Numbered from the stretch's first letter, positions 11,737 through 46,886 are shown. The stretch: 64,000 nt of DNA from a bacterium (GCA_037129835.1 JBAXUE010000001.1:90085-154084); one strand, 5' to 3'. Notes: a model not told the origin generated them from the sequence alone. Numbers and translations: made by a program.

Positions 11737-11747
11737 CTTTAATATTT

Positions 11748-11778: not shown

Positions 11779-11833
11779 ATTTGTAAATTCAATAGTATAA
11801 AGTTAGAATAATATATGTGTTCAGGAGTAGAAA

Positions 11834-12721: not shown

Positions 12722-12731
12722 GATAAAAATT

Positions 12732-29896: not shown

Positions 29897-32656
29897 GTGG
29901 GAGGGTCTATGAGTCCTGATAAAGTTGAAACCGGTGAATCTACCAAAGAAACTAACAAGGGGAAAAAGGCGGAGTGGGAAGTCGATACAATAAATTCTGC
30001 TCTAGAAACAGCGCTCAAAACAGGAGACGAGGAATTAATCAAAGCGGCCCGAGCTTCTCTTGAGGGGGCTCAGGACGGTAGGATGGATCGTCAAGACGAT
30101 TTTATCTCTCCAGAAGTAAAGACAACTATCAAGAGAGGAGGTTCATCTCTAGAGACGGTTGTTCCTTTTGCAGAAAATAAAGACGGTGAAACATTTACTA
30201 CGTTTGATGCTGCTGTAGATAAGCACAAAGGGGGGGAAGCGGTCAAGGAGGCTGCTACCAAACTTCAAGAGAAGAGAACATTGGGTACTCTAGAAGCAGA
30301 TGATGTTGATCTCAAGACGGTTTTGGATTTTCTTGCGGCCGCTAAAGCCGAGGAAGCGAAAGAAGTTGTATTACAAGCCGTAAAACAGGCTGAATATAAG
30401 GCTATTGCCAATACTTTTGAGATGTATGTTGCTGAAGGCGAAACAGTTAAAGATAAAGAAAACCTTCAGTATTTAGTTAATTATCTAAGTGATGGTTTAA
30501 ATGAGTCAGAGTTTTCCAAAGATCGTTTAGAGTCAGCAACAGTTTCTTTGAGTAAGTTGATTCAATCAGCCAGATCTGGAAAGTCTGTCGGTGTGGCTGG
30601 AAACCCCCTTGAAACCGAACATAATTCAGCAAAAGAATCGATTGCCGTACACGCGCAAGCTTTTTATGAAAAAATAAGTGAAAAGATGTCAACCGAAGAC
30701 AATAAGCGCGCAATTGATAATAACAATGATATGGAAGGGCTTATGCTGAAGCTTGAAGAGTGGAAATCTGAAGCAAGAGAAACTAAACTAGAAGCTGAAG
30801 CCAAGAGCGGAGAAGAGAAATTAGAAGAAATATCCAAGGCACAAGATGAGCTAAAAGCCATTGTTGCAGAACAAGGCAAAGCACTTTTAGAAGTTGAAAC
30901 TGCTTTGGCAATAATTGAAGGTAAATATGACGAGCAAGGCAAGGCACTCCAAGAGGCTGAAGCTGCCCTGGCAGCGCTAGAAGGTAAAAATAACGAACCG
31001 GCTGACGAAAAGGCACTAAATAATGGTGAGAATGTTCAAAAATTGGAAGGACAATCCGAAAAGTTTACTTTAGATAAAATACATAAATTTTTGGAAGACA
31101 ATTTAGACAAAGAAGATATTCAGGAGCTATATAAGAAACTCTACAGCATTGGCTATAATCGCGATGAAATAGTGGACAGTAATATTGAGAATTACTTTAG
31201 TGATAATGCGTCTATTCAGATGGAAAGTCTTGAGGCAAAGTTAATTTCAGCAAACTATACACCAGAAGAGATTAGCCGTGCCAAAGAAAAGTTACGAGTT
31301 GGCGGTATTGATATGGGTGAGCCTAATCCGACTCCGGTTGATGGTGGCGTAGAAACCGAGCAAAATTCTGCAGATCCTCTTGAGGCACCCATAAGTCAAG
31401 ATCAACAAGCAGGGGAACTTCTTGATGGAGACGCAGACGTTGTTGGCGAAGAAATAAGAGATTTGGAACAACCTGACGGTAACGCAGAAACTGAGCAACA
31501 TTCTGTGGAACCACTTGAGTCAAACATGAATCAAGACCAACGGGTTGAGGAACTTCTTGATGGAGAAACAGATGGCGTTGGTGAAGAAATAAGCGTTTTA
31601 GAACAACTTGGGCTTACGGAATTACCAGATTTCCAGGAGGTTAAAGATGCAAAAGAAGCATACCTAAAAGCTTTGATAACGAGGCAAAAATGGCGAGGAA
31701 GAACCAGTGCAGAGAATACACGTGAGCTAAGAGCAAATTATCTAGAGGTGTTTACTAATTTCTTGCAAAGAAATATTGGAGATGTTGCCCAAAATGAGCT
31801 CCAGAGCTTAACAGGACAACAGAGAGCTGAGAAGATTAGAGAAATATCACATACTTTGTCACAAGTTCTAGTTGAGGAAGTTTATAATCTATCGAATACT
31901 GAAAGCGAATTGTGCAATGAGGGCGCAGGCAACAAAATAGTAAATTTTGTTAGAAGACATCCGTTTTTGAGAATGGCAATTAGTGGTGCTTTAGTAGTAG
32001 GTAATGCTGGTCTGACCGCCGCTGCTCTTTCCAATCCAGCACTTTTTTGGGCGCTCCCAGTACTCTTAACTTCAAATGTCGCTTTGCAGTCTGCTTCTAT
32101 GGAGGGTGCTTTTGAAGGCATTGGAATTGGGTATAGCAAAAGAGATATCGCCCAGAAACGCTTTGCGGAGATCAAATCTCGCATAGCTGAATCTCGCTTA
32201 GGTCAATCTCGTCTAGGAAAAATATTTGGCGTAAAAGAAAAAGGATCTATAAGGGATATACCTGAAGATGAGCTAGAAAAGTTGACTTCGCCTCAGATAA
32301 ATAAACGCTTCGCAGCAATCCAATCCCATCTAGTGCGCACGGGTGAATCTATCGATAAAGCCGGTGCTAGAGAAAAGGAGCTCTTTAAACAACTTCAGAT
32401 TGCTATGGCCGAAGATATTCAGAAAAGTATCGAAGGACAGCTGAAACGCAACGAAGCGGTATCCGATGTTATAATACAAGAGCTTATTACGAAGCCATAT
32501 CGAGAAACTTTACGTGAGTTTGAGTTTGGGCATGAAAAATTAAGAAGAGCTTCCCTCAGAAGATGGGCTGGAACATTGAGTTCACCGGGCGCAATAGCGG
32601 CATTGATTTCTTGGAAGTATGAGCCAAAGGAACCAACCCCTGAAAGTAATAGATAA
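29897..32656 (+). CDS. large (919 aa) acidic coiled-coil protein with internal tandem repeats and C-terminal hydrophobic segments
   Basis: Two ~45-aa repeats (ETEQNSADPLEAPISQDQQAGELLDGDADVVGEEIRDLEQ / ETEQHSVEPLESNMNQDQRVEELLDGETDGVGEEISVLEQ); heptad-rich; no enzymatic motif. Confidence 0.5.
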   Translation: MGGSMSPDKVETGESTKETNKGKKAEWEVDTINSALETALKTGDEELIKAARASLEGAQDGRMDRQDDFISPEVKTTIKRGGSSLETVVPFAENKDGETFTTFDAAVDKHKGGEAVKEAATKLQEKRTLGTLEADDVDLKTVLDFLAAAKAEEAKEVVLQAVKQAEYKAIANTFEMYVAEGETVKDKENLQYLVNYLSDGLNESEFSKDRLESATVSLSKLIQSARSGKSVGVAGNPLETEHNSAKESIAVHAQAFYEKISEKMSTEDNKRAIDNNNDMEGLMLKLEEWKSEARETKLEAEAKSGEEKLEEISKAQDELKAIVAEQGKALLEVETALAIIEGKYDEQGKALQEAEAALAALEGKNNEPADEKALNNGENVQKLEGQSEKFTLDKIHKFLEDNLDKEDIQELYKKLYSIGYNRDEIVDSNIENYFSDNASIQMESLEAKLISANYTPEEISRAKEKLRVGGIDMGEPNPTPVDGGVETEQNSADPLEAPISQDQQAGELLDGDADVVGEEIRDLEQPDGNAETEQHSVEPLESNMNQDQRVEELLDGETDGVGEEISVLEQLGLTELPDFQEVKDAKEAYLKALITRQKWRGRTSAENTRELRANYLEVFTNFLQRNIGDVAQNELQSLTGQQRAEKIREISHTLSQVLVEEVYNLSNTESELCNEGAGNKIVNFVRRHPFLRMAISGALVVGNAGLTAAALSNPALFWALPVLLTSNVALQSASMEGAFEGIGIGYSKRDIAQKRFAEIKSRIAESRLGQSRLGKIFGVKEKGSIRDIPEDELEKLTSPQINKRFAAIQSHLVRTGESIDKAGAREKELFKQLQIAMAEDIQKSIEGQLKRNEAVSDVIIQELITKPYRETLREFEFGHEKLRRASLRRWAGTLSSPGAIAALISWKYEPKEPTPESNR
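31352..31621 (+). repeat. imperfect ~135-bp tandem duplication inside the 919-aa ORF
   Basis: DNA and protein repeat read directly. Confidence 0.6.
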
Positions 32657-32681: not shown

Positions 32682-33014
32682 ATGCCATCAAATATTGAGA
32701 TAATACAGGATTTAAAATTAGCTGATCTCCCAGAAGAAGAACAAAATAAAGTTCTGGCTCAGATTGCAGAAACTATACAGAATAGAATAGCTATTCGCGT
32801 AGATGGAATATTAACCGATCAACAGAAGATTGAGTATGACGGGCTAATTACCGCTGGCAACCAAGATGAGTCGGACAAATATCTTGACGAAAAGATCCCT
32901 AATTTAAGCGATATGGTTGCCGAAGAGTACACCTCACTTCGTAAGGAGCTCATAGAAAGAAACGAAATTATACTTGCTGCAATAGATAAAGCGACTAAAA
33001 AACTAGATAGCTAG
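32682..33014 (+). CDS. hypothetical acidic protein (110 aa)
   Basis: Start at ATG 32682 with SD TGGAGGG. Confidence 0.4.
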   Translation: MPSNIEIIQDLKLADLPEEEQNKVLAQIAETIQNRIAIRVDGILTDQQKIEYDGLITAGNQDESDKYLDEKIPNLSDMVAEEYTSLRKELIERNEIILAAIDKATKKLDS

Positions 33015-33045
33015 CAGTCCTAGAGCTCCGGCCAGGCACAACCTT

Positions 33046-33098
33046 GTTAACGTTGACAACTATTGTTAACAAGTGTTAACATAAAAAAAGAGGTTAAC
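33046..33098 (+). promoter_or_regulatory. promoter (TTGACA 33053-33058, -10 TAACAT) overlapped by four GTTAAC hexamers (33046, 33065, 33075, 33093); putative autoregulatory operator
   Basis: Read directly; last GTTAAC abuts the start codon, RBS AAAGAGG. Confidence 0.5.
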
Positions 33099-33350
33099 AT
33101 GACAAATAGTTATATTAGTACTACGCAGGCGGCAAAAATTCTTGGTATTAGTAGAATTGCAGTATTTAATCAAATAAAAAGTGGTAAAATACCAGCTCAA
33201 AAGGTGGGAAGAAACTATGTTATTAACCGTAAGGATATTGGCGGCATATTTCGGACTATTACCGCAAACGATAAGAGGAAGATCAATAAAGCGGTAGGCA
33301 AGGTACTTAAAGATTATTCATCAGCATTAAAGAAGCTGGGCAAAGAGTGA
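33099..33350 (+). CDS. excisionase/AlpA-family (MerR-superfamily) HTH DNA-binding protein; putative antitoxin
   Basis: ISTTQAAKILGISRIAVFNQIKSGKIPAQKVGRNYVI matches excisionase-family HTH (TIGR01764-like); stop overlaps Doc start (TGATG). Confidence 0.65.
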   Translation: MTNSYISTTQAAKILGISRIAVFNQIKSGKIPAQKVGRNYVINRKDIGGIFRTITANDKRKINKAVGKVLKDYSSALKKLGKE

Positions 33351-33766
33351 TGAAGGCGATAACCGTCGCAGAGGTGGAATATCTAGCTTATGAGCTCGCC
33401 GAGAAACAGATGGCGTGGAATGAGCCGATCCCAGATTTTGGTACTAGATATGTTGGCAAACTGGAAAGCTGTTTATCCGCGGGTTTTCAGACTTATGCGA
33501 AGAAAGAGTTATATCCAGGTTTATTGGACAAGGTCTCTATTATTTTTTACCTGATGATCAAAAATCATCCCTTTATGAACGGAAATAAACGTATCGCGAT
33601 AGCTACTATACTGACTTTTCTATATATAAATGAGAAATGGCTTGATGTCAGCAACGATGAGCTTTATCACTTTGCTATATGGGTGGCTGCCAGCAACCCG
33701 AGGCTTAAAGATGGTGTCGTCCTTGCTATCCATAGTTTTATCAAAAGCGGAATGATAGATTTATAG
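33350..33766 (+). CDS. doc: Doc/Fic-family toxin (death-on-curing kinase-like)
   Basis: HPFMNGNKRIAIA = Doc variant of the Fic motif HxFx(D/N)GNKR. Confidence 0.75.
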   Translation: MKAITVAEVEYLAYELAEKQMAWNEPIPDFGTRYVGKLESCLSAGFQTYAKKELYPGLLDKVSIIFYLMIKNHPFMNGNKRIAIATILTFLYINEKWLDVSNDELYHFAIWVAASNPRLKDGVVLAIHSFIKSGMIDL

Positions 33767-33848
33767 AGCCGTAGAAATAAAACTATTGTAGAAAACTAAA
33801 AAGAGGAGTATATTTCTTGCCAATAGTAATTTTATAGATGGGGAATAA

Positions 33849-35126
33849 GTGGAAAGATTTAAAGACATTCCTGATTTGGCAAAGTGGAAGGCTCTGATAA
33901 TAGACTACGGTATCGAGCTAGCAGAAAAGAGTATATTTAATAACCTCCCAAATATTAACGACTACAAAATAAAATATAGAATTAAGCACCCTGAAGTAAA
34001 GGGCCTAAAAGTCACCGACAATTCCGGGGACATTTTTTTTATACCTGAAGAGATAATAATTTCAAAGAATGGAAAAAAATCTTTGGTAAAGCTGAATTAC
34101 CGGAAAAACTCACCTCTGGTATTAAGCATAGAGGATGGTAAAATCGTGCTCTTAGAAAAAGGTATAACGAAGGTATCAATAAGTATTGAATTAGTCAAAA
34201 AGAGAAAATATCAGTTTCACAAGATGCCGAAAGAACTTAATCCTTTAGAGCCGTCTCTTAAGGATTTTGTTCAAGTAATAGGATTAGACAGGATAGCTAT
34301 TATGGAATTTGAGGGTTGTTGGCATTGGAACACAGGAAATGCCTGTAAATTTTGTGATACAAATCCTAAAAGACCAGGAATAATAAGTGGAATGCCAAGC
34401 GTGAATACATTGTCAGATTATAATCTAAATGTCGATGATTGGTGGAATTCGGTAAAAGACAATTACTACCAGGGTATCGAATATACCTTTAAAAAGATTC
34501 TTCAAGAAGAAATAATATCACCCCATCAACACTTCCAGTTAATGTCCGGTAATTTGCCCAATACTAGGAAAATTTGGGAGATATCCGGAGAAATTGCGGA
34601 AGTTGTTAATAGGGTTAGGCCAATTAAACAATTTGATAGTTATCTAAATATCGCTGCCCCAAGAGAAGATCAGGAACAATGGCTAAGTAAGGCTAAGTAT
34701 GATTGGGGATTTAATAATATGGTTTTTAACCTGGAGGTTATCGGTAGGGATAGATTTAGAGAAGTTTGCCCTGGAAAATCTGCACTTATGGGATACGAAA
34801 ATACGATCAACTGTATGGAGATGTCTGTAAAAATTTTTGGCAGGGGCAATGTCAGAAGTAATTTTGTTCTAGGTGCACAGCCGGTCGATGAGCTACTAAG
34901 AGGCATTGAAGATTTGGCAGAAAAAGGAATTGTGGCGGATTATAGTATTTTTTCACCGAAAAAAGGAACTCCTTGGGAAGATAGAACATCTCCAGACATG
35001 GAAACAATAGTGAATTTCTCTCAAGAACTAGCGAAAATATATAAAAAGTATGGCTACAGCGGTATATATTGTAGCTTAAGCAGCCGCTCCAATATATTAC
35101 ATGAACTAATGGAATCTGAAGAGTAA
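33849..35126 (+). CDS. hypothetical protein with CX9CX2C motif (possible non-canonical [4Fe-4S]/radical-SAM-like enzyme)
   Basis: GCWHWNTGNACKFCDTNP; ...CxFCDT resembles QueE-type cluster loop, but overall family not recognised; GTG start. Confidence 0.4.
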   Translation: MERFKDIPDLAKWKALIIDYGIELAEKSIFNNLPNINDYKIKYRIKHPEVKGLKVTDNSGDIFFIPEEIIISKNGKKSLVKLNYRKNSPLVLSIEDGKIVLLEKGITKVSISIELVKKRKYQFHKMPKELNPLEPSLKDFVQVIGLDRIAIMEFEGCWHWNTGNACKFCDTNPKRPGIISGMPSVNTLSDYNLNVDDWWNSVKDNYYQGIEYTFKKILQEEIISPHQHFQLMSGNLPNTRKIWEISGEIAEVVNRVRPIKQFDSYLNIAAPREDQEQWLSKAKYDWGFNNMVFNLEVIGRDRFREVCPGKSALMGYENTINCMEMSVKIFGRGNVRSNFVLGAQPVDELLRGIEDLAEKGIVADYSIFSPKKGTPWEDRTSPDMETIVNFSQELAKIYKKYGYSGIYCSLSSRSNILHELMESEE

Positions 35127-35128
35127 AA

Positions 35129-36157
35129 ATGAAAGCATTAGAAACAAAATTAGCGGAATTGGTTATTTTTGATGATAGTCATCAAAGAGAAGAAGTATCC
35201 CTTATGACTTATAGCGTAGAGGAGCTATATGTCAGGATGAAGGATGGATGGACTTTTAAAAGACACCCAGAAGGTTTTATATTAAGAGCCCCAGAGGAGT
35301 GGTTTGTAGATCTTAGCGATCCTTATAAGGTTATTTACCATGCAAAAATAGAAGAGAATTTAGCATACTTTCTATTTATTAGAGATCTTATAAAAGACAA
35401 TAATTTTGAAAATTATCTACATACTATTCTTAAGAAGTATCATATTGGTAATTTTAGTTTTATTTTACTAAAGGGGCCTTCATTAAAAACAGAAGTTAGA
35501 TTGGCAGGGTCAGATAAAAGAATCAGTTTATTAAAAGATTACTCGTTTTTTGAATTTGAGCAAAATAATCTGTTTAATTGTTATGTAGAAAAGGCAAATA
35601 AAATTTTACGAAAAGATTTTAAGTTTAAATCCAAAAGAGTATCTATCTACGATCAACCAGTGGCGATAAGAGACTTCTTTTTTTCGCTTAAAGATCAGTT
35701 TTCACCATTAAACAATTTTCAAAAAGATACATTTAATAATGTTTTTTTTGAGGATTTATTTAAGGGCGTTCCAGAGGCAGATGTTTATCTGTTTATTCCT
35801 TATGGGTGTTTTAGATATATTTCTAGTTTTGTCGTAGCTCATAAAACTAGCAAAATTATGCTCTGGGAGCTACATACAGACAAACATTATTCTCAAACTA
35901 GTAAATACATGGCGAAGAATTTAAAGGGGAAAAATGTTTTGATCATAGATAATTCTTATACTGGCAAAACACTTACCATGATGGCAGACTTAGTAAAAAA
36001 GGAAGGCGGTAACCCTATTCGGTTAGCACTTTTCCCTAAAAGTGAATTGTCTATTCGAAATTCTGAGTATGTTTTGTTTGTTAATAAATTTTTTAGTTCG
36101 AAAGATATAAATTTGGTCGAGGATGATTGGTTTTTAGAAATGTATAAAAATTTGTAG
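35129..36157 (+). CDS. protein with C-terminal type-I phosphoribosyltransferase (PRPP-binding) domain
   Basis: VLIIDNSYTGKTLTMM = PRTase PRPP-binding loop; N-terminal ~230 aa unassigned. Confidence 0.55.
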   Translation: MKALETKLAELVIFDDSHQREEVSLMTYSVEELYVRMKDGWTFKRHPEGFILRAPEEWFVDLSDPYKVIYHAKIEENLAYFLFIRDLIKDNNFENYLHTILKKYHIGNFSFILLKGPSLKTEVRLAGSDKRISLLKDYSFFEFEQNNLFNCYVEKANKILRKDFKFKSKRVSIYDQPVAIRDFFFSLKDQFSPLNNFQKDTFNNVFFEDLFKGVPEADVYLFIPYGCFRYISSFVVAHKTSKIMLWELHTDKHYSQTSKYMAKNLKGKNVLIIDNSYTGKTLTMMADLVKKEGGNPIRLALFPKSELSIRNSEYVLFVNKFFSSKDINLVEDDWFLEMYKNL

Positions 36158-36165
36158 GAGGATTT

Positions 36166-36747
36166 ATGACAAAACCGGAAAAAAATATCGAAAAAGAAAT
36201 CAAAATAAAAGTCGAAAATATTGCCGAGATAGGTGAAATATTAAAACGGAAAAATGCCAAGTGTCTTGGTAAATCTTTTCAGAGGACAATTCGGTTTGAC
36301 ACTGAAGATTGTGATTTAGAAAAAAATAAAACATTTATTCGGGTCCGTTCTGGTTTTGGGAACGTAGTTACGTTGAAAAAGAAAACAAAAACAAATGAAA
36401 ATGTTTTTGAAAGAGTCGAGCTAGAAACAGAAGTGTCGGACATTGAAATTATGAGAAAAATTTTCCACAACCTGGGCTATACTCGTGAATTTATCATGGA
36501 AAAATATCGAACAAATTGGGAATATAATGATACTAAAATTTCCTTTGATGAAATGCCTTTTGGTTTGTATGTGGAAATTGAAGGCGAAGAAGCAGAAATA
36601 TTCGAAACTGCCGAAGAGCTTGGACTTGATTTGAGCAACAAAATCACAGTTACTTATTGGGATTTATTTGAAGATTACAAAAAAGAAACTGGAATCTCTG
36701 GCGAAAATATAGTTTTTTCAAAGGGGTACAAGTCTAAATCAAGCTAA
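36166..36747 (+). CDS. CYTH-domain (triphosphate tunnel metalloenzyme; CyaB/ThTPase-like) protein
   Basis: N-terminal EIEIKIKV (ExExK) hallmark and conserved acidic/basic pattern; RBS AGGAGG. Confidence 0.6.
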   Translation: MTKPEKNIEKEIKIKVENIAEIGEILKRKNAKCLGKSFQRTIRFDTEDCDLEKNKTFIRVRSGFGNVVTLKKKTKTNENVFERVELETEVSDIEIMRKIFHNLGYTREFIMEKYRTNWEYNDTKISFDEMPFGLYVEIEGEEAEIFETAEELGLDLSNKITVTYWDLFEDYKKETGISGENIVFSKGYKSKSS

Positions 36748-36849
36748 GAACTACATAGTTTGGTAACATAGACAGTATTTATATTATTTAAATTGCTGCT
36801 TCTTGGCAGTGCATCTTTACAACCATCCATCTCTTGAAAGGGGGCGGAA

Positions 36850-37524
36850 ATGAAAGACTTTGAGGTTGCAGAACGACTTTACAGCGTCAATGGGCCTGAC
36901 GGGTCAGGGAAGACTATTTTCGTTCGGTACTTGGCAGCCGAAATGGCTTCAATTGCCCCCACGATAGTAGTCAAGCCTTCACTGTTCTCAGAGTCATCGG
37001 CGTCTCGGAGTATCGGAGATCTCTTCGCCAAAGACGTAGAGGTAAAGAAGGACAGTAGGGTACGGAATACCTACTTCCTTGAGACTCTCAGCGTCAACTA
37101 CCGAGACAGAGTCATTCCGTTGCTGGAGCAGGGTTACTGTGTAATCCTGGATTCATCGGAGATCCGGGATGTAGCTTTTACAAAGGATATCTCGGATGAG
37201 TTGGCTCACTCAGATACACTTGAGTGGGTTCAAAGCGGAAAGCTGACTCATCGAACAGTCGCGAAGCATCAAGTATTTCTCTACTCGGAAGCCGAAGATC
37301 TCTTTGCCAATATCCTTGCAAGAGGAGAGTTTGGCTATGGAGATCCAAGGAGCTTGGAAGAGGCAGAACGTCGTCTCTTGTGCTATCAGGAAGCCTTCAA
37401 GCTTTTCCGCTTGATGGCTCCCGAAGAAGTCAACTGGCACTATCTGGAAAATCCTCGAGTACTTAATTTCGAGGAACAGCTTCGGCTACTGAGCCGACGA
37501 GTTATCGAAGGAGCAAGCTCATGA
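36850..37524 (+). CDS. dNMP/thymidylate-kinase-like P-loop kinase (GC-rich cassette)
   Basis: NGPDGSGKT Walker A, ILDSSEIRD ~ DRY-lid region of dTMP kinases. Confidence 0.5.
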   Translation: MKDFEVAERLYSVNGPDGSGKTIFVRYLAAEMASIAPTIVVKPSLFSESSASRSIGDLFAKDVEVKKDSRVRNTYFLETLSVNYRDRVIPLLEQGYCVILDSSEIRDVAFTKDISDELAHSDTLEWVQSGKLTHRTVAKHQVFLYSEAEDLFANILARGEFGYGDPRSLEEAERRLLCYQEAFKLFRLMAPEEVNWHYLENPRVLNFEEQLRLLSRRVIEGASS

Positions 37525-37994
37525 ACAAAGCATCCAAGTACGGTCTCAACACAATTAGAAATCAACTTGAGGCCGAGAAGGTTCGCTTGGTTGCCATACG
37601 CGAGAGCAAAGCGCTCGCGGCGGGGGACCAAGACAGCTGGCATGACGAGCAGTTCAAGACAGAGATGCAGGAAGAGACGAAGTCTCTAGATAGCATCGGT
37701 CATCTCGAACAGCTGCTCGATTCCCTAAAGGAGCATCAACCAGATGGGAATGATGTCGTTGACATCGGACACTATGTCACCCTGTCTTTCCCCGAAAAGG
37801 GGGAGAAGACCTTTTGGGTTGATGGGGTTGTAGTCTCTGGTCTTGCCCACGACACGGTTACTGTGGAGAGTCCTATCGGCAAAGTCATAATCGGCTCAAG
37901 AAGAGGTCAGACAGCCACATACGTGGTAGGCACAAGCAGTGTCCAACTCCAGGTTGTCGACATCTTCCTTCCGGAAGATCTTCCACCGTTGTAG
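37521..37994 (+). CDS. GreA/GreB C-terminal-domain protein (Rnk-like regulator of nucleoside diphosphate kinase)
   Basis: C-terminal FKBP-like segment HYVTLSFPEKGEKTFWVDG...SPIGKVIIGSRRGQTATYVV aligns with the GreA C-domain; short coiled-coil N-terminus; ATGA-coupled to kinase. Confidence 0.5.
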   Translation: MNKASKYGLNTIRNQLEAEKVRLVAIRESKALAAGDQDSWHDEQFKTEMQEETKSLDSIGHLEQLLDSLKEHQPDGNDVVDIGHYVTLSFPEKGEKTFWVDGVVVSGLAHDTVTVESPIGKVIIGSRRGQTATYVVGTSSVQLQVVDIFLPEDLPPL

Positions 37995-38014
37995 CCTTGC
38001 AGCATCAAGAGAAT

Positions 38015-38054
38015 GGGTGAATGGACCTAGCGCGCTAGCGCTAGGTCCTAAACC
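38015..38054 (+). terminator. GC-rich terminator GGACCTAGCGC-GCTA-GCGCTAGGTCC + CCTTTTTTAT
   Basis: 11-bp perfect stem read directly; closes the GC-rich cassette. Confidence 0.6.
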
Positions 38055-38064
38055 TTTTTTATAG

Positions 38065-38577
38065 TTATTTTTGTTTAGCTAATTCAACTGCCTTTAAACA
38101 CGTTGATTTTAAGTCAGTAAAAAAAGGTACTTCGGGACAATCCTGGGAAAATCTTCTTTTTATATACCGATGGTTTGTAAAACCGTCTTCAATGCCTATA
38201 ACCAAGTTGGCTCCTGTGTTTTCATGTTTTACTTTCCATTCAGCGAGCTCGAATCTGGTAGTTTGAGCAAATGGTCTTTCGCAATAATGTTCTTTTTCGC
38301 TAGCAAGCCAGAAAATAATAGCACCTTCTCTTGCACATCTGTTTAAATATTCAGTTTCCCAGTCAACTTGTTCATTATACATTTCTTGGGTAAAGTCTTT
38401 TTGTCTGTCTAGAACTCTTCTAGGGGAAGCTAGGTAGATATTTGGGTCGATTTCGTGGATATACTCCATGGCGACTTCTTGCCACCTTTCAGAGCCTTTG
38501 ATTGGTCCAGCTAAAAAGATCATGGGACCTTCTACTTCTCTTTTTTCTGGTGGGATGATTATTCTATCTTTATTCAT
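38065..38577 (-). CDS. nucleoside 2-deoxyribosyltransferase / DNPH1(Rcl)-like N-glycosidase family protein
   Basis: MIFLAGPIKG (LAGP motif) and TTRFELAEW (T-x-FE catalytic Glu context) of PF05014 family. Confidence 0.55.
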   Translation of the reverse strand: MNKDRIIIPPEKREVEGPMIFLAGPIKGSERWQEVAMEYIHEIDPNIYLASPRRVLDRQKDFTQEMYNEQVDWETEYLNRCAREGAIIFWLASEKEHYCERPFAQTTRFELAEWKVKHENTGANLVIGIEDGFTNHRYIKRRFSQDCPEVPFFTDLKSTCLKAVELAKQK

Positions 38578-38649
38578 GCCCTGATTATATCAAATATTCT
38601 TTATTTGGCTATTATATTATTATTTTTATGTGCTAAAATAGCTCCTAAT

Positions 38650-40086
38650 ATGGAAAAAATGATAATCGAGATTATGCTTGATACCTTTGGAGAAACACCT
38701 AAAAGTATTAGCAGAAAAAAGATAGGACTTCGAAACGAGGTTTTTGAAGTCATTTTCGATAAACAAGAGGCAGTTATTATTAGAATTGGAAAAAATAGTA
38801 ATCAATTAGTTGGATCATCTAGGTATATCCCGTTATTTCATTCACTTGGTATAACAGTTCCAGTTATTCTTAAAGAAGACTATTCGTTAGAAAGCCATCC
38901 ATATCCATATCATATTCAAACAAAAATTGATGGTCAGGATCTAGAAAAGATCTTTAACACCCTGACTTTTTTAGAGCTAAAAAAGGTTGCGAAATTCGTT
39001 TCAGACGTCTTTACAAAGCTAGTCACATTACCAACCGACGGATGTTTTGGAATTGTGGACTACCAAGCCGTAGGGTCACATAGCAGTTGGAAAGACTTTA
39101 TACGCTCTTTGCTAAAAGAAATAGAAGAAAGTGAATCGATAAAGCACCATATAGATAAAATTTTGGTCGCCAAGACCTTTGAAATAATTCACAGCTATGA
39201 AGAATATTTTGACACTGTTAGTTCTGAGTTTTTTACTCATGATATTAGTTCAAAAAATATTATGATTTATAATGGGAAAGTTATGGGTCTGGTTGATCTG
39301 GATGTGATGTGTTTTGGGGACCCATTATTTTCATTAGGCTCAATCGTTGCTACTTGGCCGGATTCAAAAAGGGGAATGTACTATATTAATGAAATTTATA
39401 AAAATTTGCACCTGACTTTTGAAAAAATAAAAATTGTTGAAATGTATGCTATATTCCAACGATTATGGTGGCTTTCAGAAATCGGTAAAAAGTTTAACGA
39501 CAATACCGTCAAGGTAGTAGATCGAAATATAATATCCGCGGGTTCTAGTATTCTTGATATATTGATAAGTAAATACGAAGAGAAAAAATTTTTTGAATAT
39601 AAGATGAAAAATATTACCTATAATAAAGAATATCCAAAGATGTTTTTAAAGGAAAGGAAGAAAATATTATCTTTATTTGGGGAAAATGTTCAAGTTTTTC
39701 ATATTGGCAGCACGGCGATTCCTGAAATGTCAGGCAAGGGAATAATAGACATTTTGATAGTAGTCCCTGCGTTTAAGATGGCCGTTGTTTCAGAAGAATT
39801 GTTGGCTTCCGGACTACTTTTGCGCGAAAATGCAGGTTCGTCTGGCAGAATATTCTTTTCCGATAAACCACTCGAGGCTTCCAATGTTCGTTTTCACTAT
39901 CATTTAGTCAGAGAAAACACCCCAGATCATCTGAATCCTATTAAATTTCGAGATTATCTTATCGCACATCCAGATACTGCTGGTGAATATCAGGCTTTAA
40001 AAGAAACCCTAGCGCAAAATAGCGCGACCAGCCGAGAATATCTTGAGGGGAAGGCGGAGTTTATCCAATCTATTCTTAATAAATAG
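38650..40086 (+). CDS. fusion: APH/choline-kinase-like phosphotransferase (N) + GrpB/UPF0157 nucleotidyltransferase-fold domain (C)
   Basis: HDISSKNIMIY...GLVDLDVMCFGDPLFSLG (APH catalytic/Brenner + DxD motifs); C-terminal VFHIGSTAIPEMSGKGIIDILIV (GrpB). Start moved to internal ATG (MEKMIIE...) to leave a divergent promoter. Confidence 0.55.
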   Translation: MEKMIIEIMLDTFGETPKSISRKKIGLRNEVFEVIFDKQEAVIIRIGKNSNQLVGSSRYIPLFHSLGITVPVILKEDYSLESHPYPYHIQTKIDGQDLEKIFNTLTFLELKKVAKFVSDVFTKLVTLPTDGCFGIVDYQAVGSHSSWKDFIRSLLKEIEESESIKHHIDKILVAKTFEIIHSYEEYFDTVSSEFFTHDISSKNIMIYNGKVMGLVDLDVMCFGDPLFSLGSIVATWPDSKRGMYYINEIYKNLHLTFEKIKIVEMYAIFQRLWWLSEIGKKFNDNTVKVVDRNIISAGSSILDILISKYEEKKFFEYKMKNITYNKEYPKMFLKERKKILSLFGENVQVFHIGSTAIPEMSGKGIIDILIVVPAFKMAVVSEELLASGLLLRENAGSSGRIFFSDKPLEASNVRFHYHLVRENTPDHLNPIKFRDYLIAHPDTAGEYQALKETLAQNSATSREYLEGKAEFIQSILNK

Positions 40087-40119
40087 TGGTACAATAAGTG
40101 CAAATTATATTGGAGAAAC

Positions 40120-40773
40120 GTGAGGAAAGAATTTTCGAATAAATTTAAAAATGCGTACGCGGAATTGTATAAACTTCATCCTCAAGTAGGTGAGCAAAAC
40201 CCGCGTTTCCGTTATCTAAGAGTAGACTGGTTCTTCCCGAATCATATACACAATGTTCTCGAACAAGTGAAGGATTTGGGTCAGAAATATTTTACTAGCA
40301 TAGATTATGAGGTGTGTCTATATGCGGGATTGCTTCACGACTCTGGACTGGTATATAAACGAGAAACCGCAGAGGCGACTGGTCATGAAGAAAGAAGTAT
40401 TGAATACGCCGAAAAAGAACTAAAAAATTTGGGTTACAGCCAAGATTTTATTATTAAAGTTCTCGAGTGTATTAGAGCAACCAATGTAGGATATGATTCT
40501 AAATTGCCAGAAGCAATATTGGTAAGAAATGCAGATGCATACGCTCATCTTATTTCTATGCACTTTTTTGCGAAAGCGAATTTTGCAAATGATATTATTT
40601 CTTTTATCGATTGGTTTGAGAACAAAGTCGAAAGAACATATAAAAAGATATCTATCCCAGAGCTACGTTTAGAGATTGGGCCACTAATGAATTATTATCA
40701 GAAAATGCTAGAAAATTATCGGAAACAACAAGTCTCAGAAAAAGTCTATTTGAATAATATTACAGGCGAATAG
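40120..40773 (+). CDS. HD-domain phosphohydrolase
   Basis: H...AGLLHDSG...NADAYAHL metal-binding His/Asp pattern. Confidence 0.55.
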   Translation: MRKEFSNKFKNAYAELYKLHPQVGEQNPRFRYLRVDWFFPNHIHNVLEQVKDLGQKYFTSIDYEVCLYAGLLHDSGLVYKRETAEATGHEERSIEYAEKELKNLGYSQDFIIKVLECIRATNVGYDSKLPEAILVRNADAYAHLISMHFFAKANFANDIISFIDWFENKVERTYKKISIPELRLEIGPLMNYYQKMLENYRKQQVSEKVYLNNITGE

Positions 40774-41363
40774 TGAATACTTATAACAAAATCTATAGCG
40801 AAAATAAAAACGTTTTTGGTCTTAAGCCTACTGCCATACTAGAAACTGCGTTAAAGGTTGTGAGCAATAAGAGCATTGCTCTCGATATCGGCGCCGGGCA
40901 GGGGAGAGATACAATATTTCTAGCGAAATCGGGCTTTGCTGTAGATTCCATTGAAAAATCAGATGTGGCAATAAACTATTTGAAAAGTTTGAATAATAGT
41001 AATATATGTCCTATTCAAACTCGGATAGAAGACTTTGATATTGTTGAAGATAGATATGATCTAATCAACGCAATTAATGTACTTCAGTTTGTGGAAGATG
41101 AGAACATTCCTAATGTAACTACAAAAATAAAAGCTGGTTTAAAGAGCGGTGGAGTAGTGGTTATCGCTTCTTTTACAGAGGAAGACCCGTCTTTTTTAGA
41201 GCAGTCGTTTAAGAAATATTTTGCGAAAGGCGAACTCAAAAAATTATTTTCTGATTTCGAAATCATTTTTTATCGTGAAAAGCTTGTGGACGATAATCCG
41301 CACGGCGGCACGCCTTACCCCCATCAGCACGGAGCTGTAGAAGTGGTGGCTAGGAAAAGGTAA
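40773..41363 (+). CDS. class I SAM-dependent methyltransferase (TehB-like)
   Basis: Motif I ALDIGAGQGRD; GTG start overlapping upstream stop. Confidence 0.6.
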   Translation: MNTYNKIYSENKNVFGLKPTAILETALKVVSNKSIALDIGAGQGRDTIFLAKSGFAVDSIEKSDVAINYLKSLNNSNICPIQTRIEDFDIVEDRYDLINAINVLQFVEDENIPNVTTKIKAGLKSGGVVVIASFTEEDPSFLEQSFKKYFAKGELKKLFSDFEIIFYREKLVDDNPHGGTPYPHQHGAVEVVARKR

Positions 41364-41459
41364 TAATCAACTATAATACTTAACTTGTGAACGGCATTCT
41401 TTCTTTAATCTTCCAATTTATGACCCTAGATGATAATATTTTAGTAACACGGAGGGTGA

Positions 41460-42176
41460 ATGTCAAAAAAGCTTGATCATAGATTTTGGGCAAAATATTT
41501 TAAGGTTTACGATGTACTGAATATGGTAATTCCTTACCAGGAGTTATTGGGCAGTATTATTAACGAGTTGGATATTAAAAAAGGCGACCTTGTTCTCGAT
41601 GCGGGTTGCGGAACCGGTAACTTGGCGGTAAAGATGAAGACCAAGGGTGCAAAGGTTATTGGTATAGATAATTGTATAGAGGCACTTGATATTTATAAAG
41701 AAAAGGATAAACAGGCAGAGATTTTAGTCCATGATCTTACTATGCCACTACCGTTTCCAGATGGTTTTTTTGACAAAATCGCGTCAAACAATGTTCTATA
41801 TACAATTTCAAAAGCAAATAGACAAGCTGTCTATAAAGAGCTTAAGAGAGTCCTTAAGCCAGGAGGACTTTTAGTAGTAGCAAATATTCAAAAGGATTTT
41901 AAGCCTCTGAATATTTACAAAGATCACTTAAAGCAAGATTTAAGTGTTAATGGTTATTTCAGATTAATGATAAAAATAGTTAAAATGTCATTTCCAACAA
42001 TTAAAATGTTTTATTATAATTCAATAATAAAAAGTAATAACAAATCAGGTTTCTATAACTTCATTGAGAAAGGTGAAGAGGCGAAAGACTTAGAAGGTCA
42101 TGGTTTTAAAATATTATCCGAACTACCCGTTTATAGTCAACAAGCTTTCTTAACAACAAGTAAAAAAAATGTATAA
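41460..42176 (+). CDS. class I SAM-dependent methyltransferase
   Basis: Motif I VLDAGCGTGNL, post-I acidic, LKPGGLLVV motif. Confidence 0.65.
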   Translation: MSKKLDHRFWAKYFKVYDVLNMVIPYQELLGSIINELDIKKGDLVLDAGCGTGNLAVKMKTKGAKVIGIDNCIEALDIYKEKDKQAEILVHDLTMPLPFPDGFFDKIASNNVLYTISKANRQAVYKELKRVLKPGGLLVVANIQKDFKPLNIYKDHLKQDLSVNGYFRLMIKIVKMSFPTIKMFYYNSIIKSNNKSGFYNFIEKGEEAKDLEGHGFKILSELPVYSQQAFLTTSKKNV

Positions 42177-42873
42177 AAACTTTTCTGTGAAGATAGGAGA
42201 AGAGACTATAGATTTCGGGATTGCTGTTGGTAAGGAAGAGATCGAAGACTTTGTAAGGCTAAGAACATATATTTATAATAAAAATGATTATTATTCGGAG
42301 AAGAAGAAAATTGATGTTGACGAATATGATAATAAAAAAACAATATATATTGTGGCCCATTCAAGGAAGAAAGTTGTGGCAGGTCTAAGACTAATATTTG
42401 ATAAATATTTACCTACCGAGAAAGACTGTTTTAGCTTTAAGGAACCAGTAGAAATGACTACCATACCACGAAATAAAAGATTTGAAATTGGCAGACTGGT
42501 TGTAACGAATAGCGCCGGCAGGGTACCGCGAAATATTTTAATGCTTGGTCTTTTTAAAGTTGTCATGAAATATTCGATTGAAAATGGACTTATGGGAGGA
42601 TACGCTTTTATTAAACAAAAGCTTTATAAAAAATTAGTATTTATTAATGCACCATTCCATGTAATAAAGAATTCAAAGTTAATATATGAAAAAGAAACAT
42701 TAAGAAACTATTTCGGGGATCCTTTGAATCCCGTTATCCCTATTTATTTTCTTGTTTCTGAATTTAAGAAATATGAAAAGAAAATTTTTAGTAAATATTT
42801 ATTCAAAAGTGTTGATGATGTTTATATTTTGAGAAGCGTTACTAGCTGGAATATACTGAGGCGCTTTTTATGA
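42169..42873 (+). CDS. GNAT-fold N-acyltransferase (FeeM/OlsB/LuxI-like acyl-amino-acid or autoinducer synthase family)
   Basis: FEIGRLVV and hydrophobic acyl-pocket segments typical of Acetyltransf_5-type N-acyl synthases. Confidence 0.45.
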   Translation: MYKNFSVKIGEETIDFGIAVGKEEIEDFVRLRTYIYNKNDYYSEKKKIDVDEYDNKKTIYIVAHSRKKVVAGLRLIFDKYLPTEKDCFSFKEPVEMTTIPRNKRFEIGRLVVTNSAGRVPRNILMLGLFKVVMKYSIENGLMGGYAFIKQKLYKKLVFINAPFHVIKNSKLIYEKETLRNYFGDPLNPVIPIYFLVSEFKKYEKKIFSKYLFKSVDDVYILRSVTSWNILRRFL

Positions 42874-45113
42874 TGTTTAATTTTTCTTCTATATTACTAT
42901 TAATTATTAGCGCAGTTAATTTAGTTCTGGGTTTATTAATTATAGTTAGAAACAGGAAAAGCATTCAAAATATTTTATTTTCTATTATGCTTTTTGGTAT
43001 CACCTTTTGGTCACTTTCCTTAATCCTCTATAATTTAGGCTTGCCAGAAACTATATATATATGGGGACAATTAGCCTATCTTTTTTCTGCATTAACTATA
43101 AGTTTATTTTTACAGTTTACTTTATACTTTCAAACAAAATTAGTAAATAAATTTGTTCAATACCTTTCTATTTTTTTGTGTACTGTGTATTTAGTTATAG
43201 CAGTTATACCATTTTCAATTTTTTCAAGTATTACAATAGCAGATGGTTTAATCGAAACTAGCTTAAACTGGGGTTATTATTTACATTCTATTATGACATT
43301 TGTTCTTTTCGGATGGGCTTTGATAAACCTAGTAATAAAGTACAATAAATCAACAGGAATATATCGTTCTCAATTAGTATTAATTCTTGTGGGTGCAACA
43401 ATTTCAACAGTCATTGCCATTTTTTCGAATGTTATATTATTTTCGAGTACAGGACTGTATAACTGGCTAGGACCAACAGGCACAATTTTTTTAGTTGGGT
43501 GTATAACATATGCCATTGTTAAACATAGATTAATGGATATTAGAATGGTTGTTGCTCGTTCGGTAGCATATATCATTCTTATTGTTACTTTGGCTGGTCT
43601 ATATGCCGGTGCAGTGCTCGGAATGGAATTTATCCTTTTCCCAAAAGAATTGACATCTTTCAGCTTAACCCAAGGAGGCTTAAGAACTGTTGTCGCCGTA
43701 ATTATGGTATTCCTCTTCCAGCCATTAAAAAACTGGATTACCAAAGCAACAGATAAAATATTTTTCCGAGGTAGATATGACGCCGATCAGCTACTTTCTG
43801 AGCTTTCAAATACAATGAGCTCGACAATCGTTCTTGTGGAGCTACTTTACCGAGTTAGCGATCTGATTCAAAAGAATATTAAGTCTACAAGAGTTCTTAC
43901 GGCACTCGTTAAGGATGACACCAGAATGTATAATGTCCAGGCAAATGGCTATAAAGAGACTCCCGATGTAGATCCCAGAGACGTCTACCATCTGGCCAAG
44001 GATGGAATTATCATCAAAGATGATCTGGAAGACGGCTCAAAATCAAAAAAACTCTTAACTGAATATAATGCGACTATGGCTGTGCCACTAAAGACAGATA
44101 GTGAGGTCATCGGAGTGATTCTTCTAGGTGAGAAAAATTCAGGGGAGATGTACAACCAGCAAGATATGAAGGTGATGGAGATTATTGGTCCAGAGCTAGC
44201 AGTTGCAGTTGAGAACGCCAAATCATACGAAGAGATATCAAAGTTCAATGTCACTCTGCGCCAGGAAGTGAAGAGAGCGACTTATCGCTTGAAACAGAAG
44301 AACTCGGAGCTACAGGAGCTAGATAAGGCCAAGGACGAGTTTATCAGCATGGCATCTCATCAGCTGCGAACGCCTCTGACGGCCATTAAGGGCTATTTAT
44401 CGATGCTACTCGAGGGAGATGCTGGAGATATCAAAGTAAGTCAGTATGACTTCATTAACGAGGCATACAGCGGTGCAAATAGAATGGTAGGACTGATCAA
44501 TGATCTTCTTAACGTATCTCGCATGGAAACAGGTCGTTTTTTTCTGGAGCCGAAGGAAGTGGATATTGAAAGGATTGTTAACGAAGAGGTTAAACAATTA
44601 TCACAACAGGCTAGGACTAAGGGTCTTTATCTAAAGGTTGAGAACAAAGGCAAGGTGCCCCATATTTGGGCAGACGAAACTAAAATTCGCCAAGTGGTAA
44701 TGAATTTTATGGACAATGCTCTCTACTACACCTTGACCGGAGGAGTGACCGTGACGCTAAGACATGATAAGGTAAATCTATATTATGAAGTCCATGATAC
44801 TGGCATAGGTGTTCCTGCAGACCAAAAACGGCATCTTTTTGAAAAGTTTTTCAGGGCAGATAATGCTCGTACTACACGGCCAGACGGTACCGGGCTTGGT
44901 ATTTATCTTGCGAAGAGAGTCATAGAAGATCATGGTGGAGAAATTATTTTCGAATCGGAAGTGGGCAAGGGCTCTATGTTTGGCTTCAAGTTTCCGCTTA
45001 AGAAAAAAGTTGGACCAAAGCCGATAAGTGCTCCTGCGCCACGGACGGTACATACAGCCGAAACAATGCAGGCAGTACAGACAGAGATTGTTGAAAAAGC
45101 TGCAATAAAATAA
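42870..45113 (+). CDS. sensor histidine kinase: ~8 TM N-terminal domain + GAF + HisKA + HATPase_c
   Basis: H-box FISMASHQLRTPLTAI, N/G boxes NALYYT...DTGIGVP...GTGLGIYLAK. Confidence 0.85.
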   Translation: MMFNFSSILLLIISAVNLVLGLLIIVRNRKSIQNILFSIMLFGITFWSLSLILYNLGLPETIYIWGQLAYLFSALTISLFLQFTLYFQTKLVNKFVQYLSIFLCTVYLVIAVIPFSIFSSITIADGLIETSLNWGYYLHSIMTFVLFGWALINLVIKYNKSTGIYRSQLVLILVGATISTVIAIFSNVILFSSTGLYNWLGPTGTIFLVGCITYAIVKHRLMDIRMVVARSVAYIILIVTLAGLYAGAVLGMEFILFPKELTSFSLTQGGLRTVVAVIMVFLFQPLKNWITKATDKIFFRGRYDADQLLSELSNTMSSTIVLVELLYRVSDLIQKNIKSTRVLTALVKDDTRMYNVQANGYKETPDVDPRDVYHLAKDGIIIKDDLEDGSKSKKLLTEYNATMAVPLKTDSEVIGVILLGEKNSGEMYNQQDMKVMEIIGPELAVAVENAKSYEEISKFNVTLRQEVKRATYRLKQKNSELQELDKAKDEFISMASHQLRTPLTAIKGYLSMLLEGDAGDIKVSQYDFINEAYSGANRMVGLINDLLNVSRMETGRFFLEPKEVDIERIVNEEVKQLSQQARTKGLYLKVENKGKVPHIWADETKIRQVVMNFMDNALYYTLTGGVTVTLRHDKVNLYYEVHDTGIGVPADQKRHLFEKFFRADNARTTRPDGTGLGIYLAKRVIEDHGGEIIFESEVGKGSMFGFKFPLKKKVGPKPISAPAPRTVHTAETMQAVQTEIVEKAAIK

Positions 45114-46737: not shown

Positions 46738-46785
46738 ATAAAAAGAGACTGATTATTTCCACAAATAATCAGTCTCTTTTTTGGC
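46738..46785. terminator. terminator AAAGAGACTGATTATTT-loop-AAATAATCAGTCTCTTT + TTTTGG
   Basis: 17-bp stem read directly; between convergent + genes and the minus-strand tRNA-Glu. Confidence 0.6.
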
Positions 46786-46811: not shown

Positions 46812-46886
46812 TGGTAGTCCCAAGGGGAGTCGAACCCCTGTTACCAGGATGAAAACCTGGCGTCCTAACCACTAGACGATGGGACC
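46812..46886 (-). tRNA. tRNA-Glu (anticodon UUC), CCA encoded
   Basis: Reverse complement GGTCCCATCGTCTAGTGGTTAGGACGCCAGGTTTTCATCCTGGTAACAGGGGTTCGACTCCCCTTGGGACTACCA. Confidence 0.75.

Follow-up and report, generated by a model that had tools for sequence, protein, structure and literature searches.

A 64,000-nucleotide stretch of bacterial DNA (GCA_037129835.1 JBAXUE010000001.1:90085-154084; the full 64 kb are hereafter called the window) contains, at positions 33849-42873, eleven open reading frames (ORFs), numbered g1 to g11. The first three encode a variant radical S-adenosylmethionine (SAM) enzyme (g1), a protein with a phosphoribosyltransferase (PRTase) fold (g2) and a CYTH/triphosphate-tunnel metalloenzyme (g3), and they form a co-inherited conserved unit. 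This core is a genuine uncharacterised system and, together with a kinase gene (g4), a Gre/Rnk-like gene (g5), an N-glycosidase gene (g6) and an HD hydrolase gene (g8), it probably makes or processes a modified nucleotide. An earlier reading, made from the sequence alone, had described the 9 kb as a single island of ten genes. All of the ORFs and domain calls that it listed are present, several of the calls being weak when compared to Pfam, NCBIfam and PHROG profiles, but eleven ORFs were counted, ten on the + strand and one (38065-38577) on the − strand. What is conserved is not the whole 11-gene stretch but the trio, together with a few genes that vary between loci and are of the kinase, pyrophosphatase, N-glycosidase or Gre-like kind.

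Orthologues were sought by a scan of 185,579 species genomes, and the window proteins were searched by phmmer against all ORFs of the resulting loci (labels L001 and so on denote other genomic loci with g1 homologues); the neighbourhoods of nine g1 homologues were inspected individually. Of 37 non-redundant orthologue loci, 34 have g2 adjoining g1, and in 29 of these g3 is adjacent too. The trio was found as well in six out of six further metagenome loci. Where the CYTH gene is missing, its position is taken by a gene for a NUDIX protein, a nucleotidyltransferase or a kinase. In the window the trio genes are spaced 2-8 nt apart, and the pairwise identities of g1, g2 and g3 covary (Mantel r 0.77-0.89, p <= 5e-4). 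The conservation of this group across genomes, which the sequence-only reading had proposed as a check, is therefore strong. Chance juxtaposition of genes without a joint function is excluded for g1-g3 by the adjacency, the metagenome loci, the covariation and the gene fusions described below; it holds for part of the stretch, with g7, g10 and g11 showing no significant recurrence near the trio, and as an account of the whole stretch we find it hardly credible. The genes g1-g3 cluster beyond chance, and so do g4, g5, g6 and g8 when taken as gene classes; for g7 and g9-g11 no such clustering was seen.

The trio is rare and patchy, and it occurs in both domains, with about 30 orthologue loci in the species genomes scanned. 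Its hosts, very small symbiotic bacteria, very small archaea and Firmicutes of the gut, are Candidate Phyla Radiation (CPR) bacteria (Berkelbacteria, Saccharibacteria and Paceibacterota), DPANN-type metagenome-assembled genomes (MAGs; Nanohalarchaeota and Nanoarchaeota) and Firmicutes (uncultured Clostridia and Bacilli, Lacrimispora sp. AGF001 and Paenibacillus dendritiformis). The trio cassette is horizontally transferred across both domains. No Pfam, PADLOC, PHROG or riboswitch model covers the core, and no paper combining radical SAM, CYTH and PRTase was found in the searchable literature. Comparison of the stretch to PADLOC-DB 2.0 yielded only trivial matches (ShosT, 14.7 bits; mad8, 15.2 bits; Cas10 HD domain, 23.5 bits), and identity with a known anti-phage system was rejected, no component being matched significantly. 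A phage origin, or a role as auxiliary phage gene, was rejected as well: the IMG/VR scan with the g1 profile returned a single 44-residue fragment, and g1, g2, g3, g5 and g6 match no PHROG. With PADLOC and PHROGs negative, none of the three roles suggested from the sequence alone (a modified-nucleotide signal, an anti-phage nucleotide-depletion module, small-molecule tailoring or resistance) is established. The window, L003, L081 and L083 have toxin-antitoxin or Abi genes in the vicinity of the trio. An Rfam scan of ten Firmicutes loci gave tRNAs and one group II intron only. In Lacrimispora sp. AGF001 (L023) a group II intron (6867-6963, Rfam 49.8 bits) is located 2.5 kb upstream of a NUDIX-radical-SAM fusion.

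By profile and predicted structure, g1 (33849-35126, + strand, 425 aa) is a radical-SAM enzyme, for which SAM cleavage is predicted. It scores above the cutoff of the NCBIfam model NF045502 'variant_rSAM' (170.1 bits, cutoff 125), while it matches nothing in Pfam, PF04055 included. Its cluster-binding motif CWHWNTGNACKFC (34317-34355, + strand) contains C157, C166 and C169; the translation was checked, and the spacing is C157-x8-C166-x2-C169, that is, CX8CX2C instead of the CX9CX2C first read. These cysteines are invariant across 25 homologues. CX8CX2C is among the known spacing variants of radical SAM, the canonical motif being CX3CX2C, and RadicalSAM.org lists uncharacterised CX8CX2C megaclusters, 4-6-x (PMC9477430). 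An AlphaFold2 (AF2) model based on an alignment of the 25 homologues (predicted local distance difference test, pLDDT, 92.4) shows a β-rich N-terminal domain (about 130 aa) and, after it, a partial TIM barrel, a positive outcome of the fold test that the sequence-only reading had proposed for the 425-aa protein. The top Foldseek matches of the barrel in the PDB are the radical-SAM enzymes LipA, SkfB, BioB, NifB, NosL and HydG, with E values of 2e-6 to 1e-4. Searched against PDB sequences, the g1 profile found no match and hence no close solved relative. In all, 177 g1 homologues are detectable.

Several better known identities were considered for g1 and rejected. The sequence-only reading had compared the Cys loop to QueE and to the synthesis of 7-deazapurine nucleosides. 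That comparison is not upheld: no QueE-type model matches g1 at E <= 0.1, and FolE, QueD and QueC do not recur beside the trio, being absent among 113 immediate and 131 wider neighbours. The 7-deazapurine systems (QueE, the PRTase TubE, the Nudix enzyme TubG) resemble the cassette in the combination of radical-SAM enzyme, PRTase and Nudix for a modified nucleoside (PMC6112128); they differ from it in these missing components, and g2 has in addition an extra novel N-terminal domain and an incomplete phosphoribosyl pyrophosphate (PRPP) loop. Homology to viperin was discarded because g1 does not match the viperin hidden Markov model (HMM) NF038283 and has another cysteine spacing. MSMEG_0568/Nit1C stands under the same NCBIfam 'variant_rSAM' umbrella as g1, but TIGR04043 gives 39.7 bits against a cutoff of 303.7. 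Partner genes of Nit1C include those for a nitrilase, a GNAT protein, a flavoprotein and an AIR-synthase-like protein, and none of these is seen next to the trio.

More distant paralogues of g1 (25-30% identity) are known from Clostridia, Rhodobacter and Treponema and often form tandem arrays; in L046-L062 and L077 (e.g., L058:670-20594) there are 2-5 copies per 20 kb, in Ruminiclostridium, Anaerosporobacter, other Clostridia and Treponema. When the ORFs of these loci were searched by phmmer, neither g2 nor g3 was found with the paralogues.

The second core gene, g2 (35129-36157, + strand, 342 aa), encodes a two-domain protein. No relative is detectable for its N-terminal part of about 200 aa; the C-terminal region adopts the fold of type I PRTases, five-stranded core included. 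This fold stands after both profile and structure tests. The PRPP-loop-like motif VLIIDNSYTGKT (35936-35971, + strand) has D274, Y277 and T281 invariant and keeps the phosphate-binding T/S-G-x-T; canonical PRTases have a second acidic residue, which is not conserved here. The match to PF00156 (19.6 bits, under the cutoff of 26.3) is confined to this loop, which is also the sole part that the g2 profile matches among PDB sequences. Because the phosphate loop is kept and the second acidic residue is not, it is likely, judging from these residues, that g2 binds ribose-5-phosphate, its catalysis being uncertain. The family is tiny, with 137 representatives among 1.84 billion proteins and a single architecture; nearly all members are of 330-370 aa, and the search draws in no generic PRTases.

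g3 (36166-36747, + strand, 193 aa) matches PF01928 with 59.6 bits (cutoff 23.2), and in the window copy its ExExK motif is E9-E11-K13. Its closest solved relative is the Sulfolobus triphosphatase SaTTM (Saci_0718; E 2.5e-19), behind which the class IV adenylate cyclases rank; the score with the corresponding equivalog (CyaB, TIGR00318) is 52.4 bits, below the cutoff of 57.95. The SaTTM operon of Sulfolobus is SAM- and nucleotide-linked, with a SAM hydrolase and an NMN adenylyltransferase (bioRxiv 10.1101/2025.08.29.672840). In this linkage it is similar to the cassette, but it has neither a radical-SAM enzyme nor a PRTase-fold protein.

The genes accompanying the trio were classified by Pfam for 113 proteins lying within two genes of it in 31 loci. 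NUDIX is the most frequent (19, of which 12 carry a segment like the LeuRS editing domain), and the kinases belong to several families: AAA_18 (12), Cytidylate_kin (8), Thymidylate_kin (5), dNK (5), AAA_28 (4) and Guanylate_kin (2). Extra CYTH proteins and GreA_GreB were found six times each, MoaA-like Radical_SAM four times, HD three times, and IU_nuc_hydro and PF15891 twice each. In the wider census of 131 neighbours the counts fall to NUDIX 3, HD 3 and at most 2 for every other family; the cassette is therefore compact, without recurrent defence-island or biosynthetic-cluster surroundings. The window holds its fullest version, g1-g6 plus the HD gene g8 (33849-38577 and 40120-40773). In L010, L023 and L025, g1 bears an N-terminal NUDIX fusion.

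The kinase slot of the cassette is occupied in the window by g4 (36850-37524, + strand), a Tmk/dNK-like P-loop kinase (P-loop GPDGSGKT) that reaches 19.5 bits with PF02223, below the cutoff, and matches a PHROG thymidylate kinase at E 5e-6. A word-indexed search of 5.8 billion proteins returned g4 only. Kinases of several families neighbour the trio in other loci. g6 (38065-38577, − strand) is a putative N-glycosidase of the PF15891 family, resembling nucleoside deoxyribosyltransferase (NDT) and DNPH1; it scores 29.9 bits with PF15891 (cutoff 30), and a profile of four orthologues matches the PF15891-type PDB entry 4mcj at E 7e-5, by which the NDT-like call is upheld as a candidate assignment. 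E110, in RFELAEW, is invariant among the four orthologues and is the candidate nucleophile; this branch of PF15891 has no characterised member. Orthologues of g6 adjoin the trio in L012 (4e-49), L019 (6e-57), L033 and L080. N-glycosidases were recorded in eight other loci, being NDT-like in those four and of the inosine-uridine nucleoside hydrolase (IUNH) type, inside the operon, in L001, L013 and L014. g8 (40120-40773, + strand) is an HD-domain phosphohydrolase (PF01966, 31.7 bits); it is probable that it fills the pyrophosphohydrolase slot that NUDIX occupies in most other loci. HD genes abut the trio in L003, L017, L033, L034 and L081 and lie near it in L008.

Firmicutes loci (L006:6264-7735; L021, L025, L029, L039 and L040) contain, just upstream of the trio, a second pair made up of a MoaA-like radical-SAM gene and a CYTH gene. 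The MoaA-like gene, of about 300 aa, gives about 138 bits with MoaA models, far under their cutoffs, and 62 bits with the viperin HMM NF038283 (cutoff 180). The pair lies behind a LysR regulator, often with a guanylate or cytidylate kinase. In L081 its place is taken by a B12-binding radical-SAM gene paired with CYTH. From these second pairs, CYTH looks like a general partner of nucleotide-directed radical-SAM enzymes.

The Gre/Rnk-like factor encoded by g5 (37521-37994, + strand; overlapping g4 by 4 nt) is predicted to be of the RNA polymerase secondary-channel type. It matches PF01272, the GreA/GreB C-terminal domain, with 35.2 bits (cutoff 26.9), and stays under the cutoff of all NCBIfam equivalogs, the best being Rnk (52.8 against 126). 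Its tip motif DSWHDE (nt 37632-37649) belongs to a pattern shared by the Gre-like proteins, D-x-W-H-D-[NE], that can be aligned to GreA's acidic tip: D-S-W-H-D-E stands opposite G-D41-L-K-E44-N of GreA, and the E44 position is acidic in all 7 sequences. A Gre-like gene lies beside the trio in ten loci, all of CPR/DPANN type and in varying arrangements (the window, L001, L004, L012, L015, L016, L022, L080, L082 and L083); the Firmicutes trio loci have no adjacent Gre-like gene in the loci and census examined. In L015 and L016 it abuts a CMP-kinase-like gene. Since three unrelated kinase folds pair with the one factor, the Gre-like factor appears to be functionally linked to kinases. Rnk-type factors bind RNA polymerase, their function being listed as unknown (PMC4598747).

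Next to the trio in L083, a PfkB-family sugar/nucleoside kinase (GAGD motif) and a complete Gre-like factor are joined in a single uninterrupted ORF of 436 aa (11589-12899, − strand); the Gre-like part has the coiled coil, the tip motif NWHDN and the C-terminal domain. To our knowledge, no kinase-Gre fusion has been described. The MAGs of L015 and L016 are labelled archaeal and carry beside the trio a bacterial-type Gre-like factor with a C-terminal extension of about 90 aa, which reflects either inter-domain transfer or mis-binning.

The presence of a CYTH enzyme next to a Gre-like factor would also suit a signal nucleotide directed at RNA polymerase. CYTH would then act as a cyclase or pyrophosphate-releasing enzyme on a nucleoside triphosphate (NTP) modified by the radical-SAM enzyme, and the product would act with the Gre/Rnk-like factor, as ppGpp does with DksA, perhaps under the neighbouring histidine kinase. 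The score of g3 just under the cyclase cutoff, the adjacency of the Gre-like gene in ten loci with its own conserved tip, the occurrence of 7TM histidine kinase homologues close to the trio (window, L001 and L022, the last with a response regulator), and the NUDIX or HD enzymes, which could degrade the signal, are all consistent with this. We nevertheless consider it decidedly unlikely, as the closest solved relative of g3 is a triphosphatase and no cyclase, the Firmicutes loci are without the Gre-like gene, and no receptor or effector domain recurs among the immediate or wider neighbours.

RNA triphosphatases are among the founding members of the CYTH/TTM family. A system acting at RNA 5' ends or linked to transcripts can be imagined on this basis, with CYTH as RNA triphosphatase and NUDIX in a decapping-type role; the Gre-like factor would connect it to RNA polymerase, and g1 and g2 would install an unusual 5' group. 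The associated NUDIX proteins weakly best-match RNA pyrophosphohydrolase models and carry the segment resembling the LeuRS editing domain, and the Gre-like gene is linked to the trio; this evidence is indirect throughout, however, the kinases and N-glycosidases point to free nucleotides, and no RNA-binding domain was detected. Such a system is very improbable.

The best comparison for a radical-SAM enzyme accompanied by kinases is viperin, with its partnership of the CMPK2 type. Viperins show genetic linkage to nucleoside monophosphate (NMP) kinases, and certain viperins carry a fused 'triphosphatase or cyclase' domain (bioRxiv 10.1101/2023.09.13.557418). The cassette shares with them the linkage of radical SAM and NMP kinase, kinases being enriched within two genes of the trio, and a patchy distribution in both domains; the likeness is one of logic and not of homology. 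g1 has CX8CX2C where viperin has CX3CX2C, and its fold groups with BioB/LipA/ThiH-like enzymes. The obligatory PRTase-fold and CYTH proteins, the near-universal NUDIX or HD enzyme and the Gre-like factor have not been described for viperins.

By analogy with viperin, our leading but tentative proposal is the radical-SAM modification of a phosphorylated nucleoside, and beyond the domain assignments we infer the steps as follows. A kinase would lift a nucleoside monophosphate to the di- or triphosphate; the substrate would probably often be a pyrimidine, because cytidylate kinases are the commonest partner. The 5'-deoxyadenosyl radical of g1 would alter the sugar or the base, and the PRTase-fold protein g2 may hold the substrate via its 5-phosphoribosyl group. 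CYTH and NUDIX/HD would strip tri- or pyrophosphate, either in maturing the product or in limiting its level, and the NDT-like or IUNH enzyme would cleave off the base for recycling. The Gre/Rnk-like factor, paired or fused with a kinase, would couple the system to RNA polymerase and possibly rescue the host polymerase from the analogue. On this scheme the product is most likely a nucleotide analogue that serves as antimetabolite or antiviral agent.

Two extensions of the viperin-like proposal go further. The first is a new class of system in which the trio makes a non-canonical nucleotide that acts, or is neutralised, at RNA polymerase's secondary channel through the kinase-tethered Gre-like factor. 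The latter would either bring the analogue to the polymerase or cut it out of the 3' ends of host transcripts, so that only foreign polymerases would be poisoned. In the second and bolder variant, g1 would deoxygenate a ribonucleotide or PRPP, providing auxotrophs with deoxynucleotides without a ribonucleotide reductase, and the NDT-like enzyme and the dNMP-type kinases would spread the deoxyribose among bases. Something categorically new along either line is, in our view, unlikely but not far-fetched.

A number of observations weigh against an analogue-producing role of the cassette. g1 is no viperin homologue, given the lack of a viperin-model match and the different cysteine spacing; g2, by its PRPP loop without the second acidic residue, may bind its substrate instead of catalysing; and in the Firmicutes copies g3 has lost its ExExK glutamates. 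A NUDIX or HD partner, near-universal as it is, would break down an NTP analogue, unless it serves maturation or self-protection. The Gre-like gene of small genomes could be a plain housekeeping GreA (PMC4598747). PADLOC found nothing significant in the stretch. The Firmicutes trio loci lie behind LysR regulators and the trio of L082 is embedded among ribosomal genes, a context that looks metabolic and not defensive. Lastly, most of the hosts are auxotrophic for nucleotides, and in them salvage would be a natural role as well.

Salvage or pool maintenance in nucleotide-auxotrophic, small-genome anaerobes is a possible alternative, to which we assign low but appreciable confidence. Scavenged or damaged nucleotides, or a PRPP-level sugar, would be turned into usable (deoxy)nucleotides; the kinases, PRTase, N-glycosidase and pyrophosphatases would do what they usually do in salvage, with the kinase regulated by the Gre/Rnk-like protein, the Rnk family owing its name to the regulation of nucleoside diphosphate kinase (PMC4598747). 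The hosts (CPR, DPANN-type MAGs, and small gut Clostridia and Bacilli, with a chromosome of 1.7 Mb in L021) agree with such a role, and the accessory enzymes of the immediate-neighbour census are all of salvage type. L081 adjoins IMPDH and PurA; L080 has Maf, His_Phos, HAD, an MFS transporter and two NUDIX; and the ribosomal surroundings of L082 and the LysR regulators of the Firmicutes loci fit as well. Bulk metabolism is, however, hard to reconcile with a cassette that is very rare even within the CPR, with the cost of a stoichiometric radical-SAM step and with a gene set that differs between loci, unlike that of a fixed primary pathway; moreover, no missing housekeeping step was identified for the cassette to fill.

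If the core does make a modified nucleotide, a second and unrelated radical-SAM lineage would stand beside viperin and QueE in nucleotide-analogue chemistry, and that chemistry would gain g2 as a new family of partner proteins, together with an obligatory triphosphatase. It would also be a first handle on the accessory nucleotide biochemistry of CPR and DPANN, whose dependence on host nucleotides is central. The pairing or fusion of a Gre/Rnk-like factor with three unrelated kinase folds is unexpected and could explain the obscure link between Rnk and nucleotide kinase (PMC4598747). The cassette is small (3-6 genes) and is present in at least one isolate genome, Lacrimispora sp. AGF001, which makes it directly testable.

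The second half of the stretch is related to the cassette to a lesser extent. g7 (38605-40086, + strand), adjacent to the cassette, encodes an APH-GrpB fusion; in L004 the trio has an APH gene and a separate GrpB gene nearby, and in L023 an APH gene, without wider recurrence in the neighbour censuses. g9 (40773-41363, + strand) is a TehB-type SAM methyltransferase (PF03848, 78 bits) with homologues near the trio in L004 (1e-39), L008 and L013, the HD and TehB pair being common to the window and L008; it is possible that g9 is an accessory of the cassette. g10 and g11 (41460-42873, + strand) encode a Methyltransf_11 protein and a FeeM/autoinducer-synthase-like N-acyltransferase. For g10 only weak matches were obtained, to generic methyltransferases in L001 and L013, and no g11 homologue was found near any other trio. 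Conservation of the whole 11-gene set was rejected, since ThyA, APH, GT2, methyltransferases and GNAT are locus-specific. On present evidence, g7, g10 and g11 are neighbouring small-molecule transferases outside the cassette.

The whole 9 kb might instead be a nucleoside natural-product cluster, in which the trio would build the scaffold, following the logic of tubercidin/toyocamycin or of bacimethrin/mildiomycin, and g7 and g9-g11 (kinase, two methyltransferases and N-acyltransferase) would tailor the product or give self-resistance. Bacimethrin, mildiomycin and blasticidin S are built by the logic of a ThyA-like CMP hydroxymethylase and an NDT-like CMP N-glycosidase, with or without a radical-SAM enzyme. 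The cassette has in common with them a candidate NDT-family N-glycosidase for a modified pyrimidine nucleotide, methyltransferases and kinases nearby and, in L023, a ThyA-like gene directly after the trio; it differs in that this gene is found in one locus only, g6 lies in the uncharacterised PF15891 branch and cytosylglucuronate-type enzymes are missing. In favour of such a cluster are the fixed core amid variable genes of tailoring type, the ThyA-like enzyme, APH, alpha/beta hydrolase and GT2 of L023, the ABC-2 exporter of L020 and the APH, GrpB, NTP_transf_2 and TehB of L004, and the tubercidin pathway itself combines a radical-SAM enzyme with the PRTase TubE and the Nudix enzyme TubG (PMC6112128). 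The tailoring genes, however, are not recurrent across loci, with g11 lacking homologues near other trios and the accessory set of L023 unique to that locus; g1 is not QueE-like, FolE, QueD and QueC are missing, and a transporter stands next to the trio in L020 and L080 only. The prospects of this explanation are poor.

Three loci deserve separate description. In L023 (12966-17625) the trio is followed by the thymidylate-synthase-like gene (93 bits), APH, the alpha/beta hydrolase and GT2. The CPR-type locus L080 (4398-10174) has two NUDIX, a second CYTH, Maf, His_Phos_1, a HAD hydrolase, the MFS transporter and GNAT beside the trio. In the CPR locus L082 (1976-3653) a transporter of the Vut_1/YhhQ family (the queuosine-precursor transporter family) and a radical-SAM gene of 287 aa lie 4.5 kb upstream of the trio, a proximity that is possibly coincidental.

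The 11-gene stretch is flanked upstream by an HTH_17 and Fic/Doc pair (33063-33766) and downstream by a 7TM histidine kinase gene (HisKA_7TM, 42870-45113). As the start of the latter overlaps the g11 stop codon, position 42873 is no operon boundary; the two genes are translationally coupled. HisKA_7TM homologues also occur near the trio in L022 (331-2382) and L001 (from 21081), and in L022 a response regulator sits between the histidine kinase and the Gre-like gene. Neither flanking direct repeats nor an integrase, which would mark the edges of a mobile island, were found at 33849-42873, and an Rfam scan of window positions 33000-43500 gave zero matches at E <= 1, riboswitches included. The mosaic composition and horizontal assembly proposed earlier hold for g4-g5 only: this block of 1.15 kb has 49-52% GC (48.9% for g4) and a GC3 of 51-58%, against a window mean of 37.9%, and includes the highest 1-kb GC value of the window, whereas all other genes of the stretch have 30-38% GC. 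An attempt to trace the origin of the block gave no lead, g4 having no homologue among the 5.8 billion proteins.

The wider window is the ordinary chromosome of a small-genome bacterium, with RNase Y, ABC transporters, a PPDK_N + PEP-utilizers enzyme, iPGM, seven tRNAs and a DUF5663 protein. At 29897-32656 an acidic protein of 919 aa without Pfam match contains an internal repeat of about 40 aa (ETEQNSADPLEAP... / ETEQHSVEPLESN...) and hydrophobic segments at its C-terminus; the DUF5663 protein comes next. Directly after a gene ending at 46707, and beside a tRNA-Glu (46812-46886), a perfect 19-bp inverted repeat with a 4-nt loop (46740-46781) is probably a terminator.

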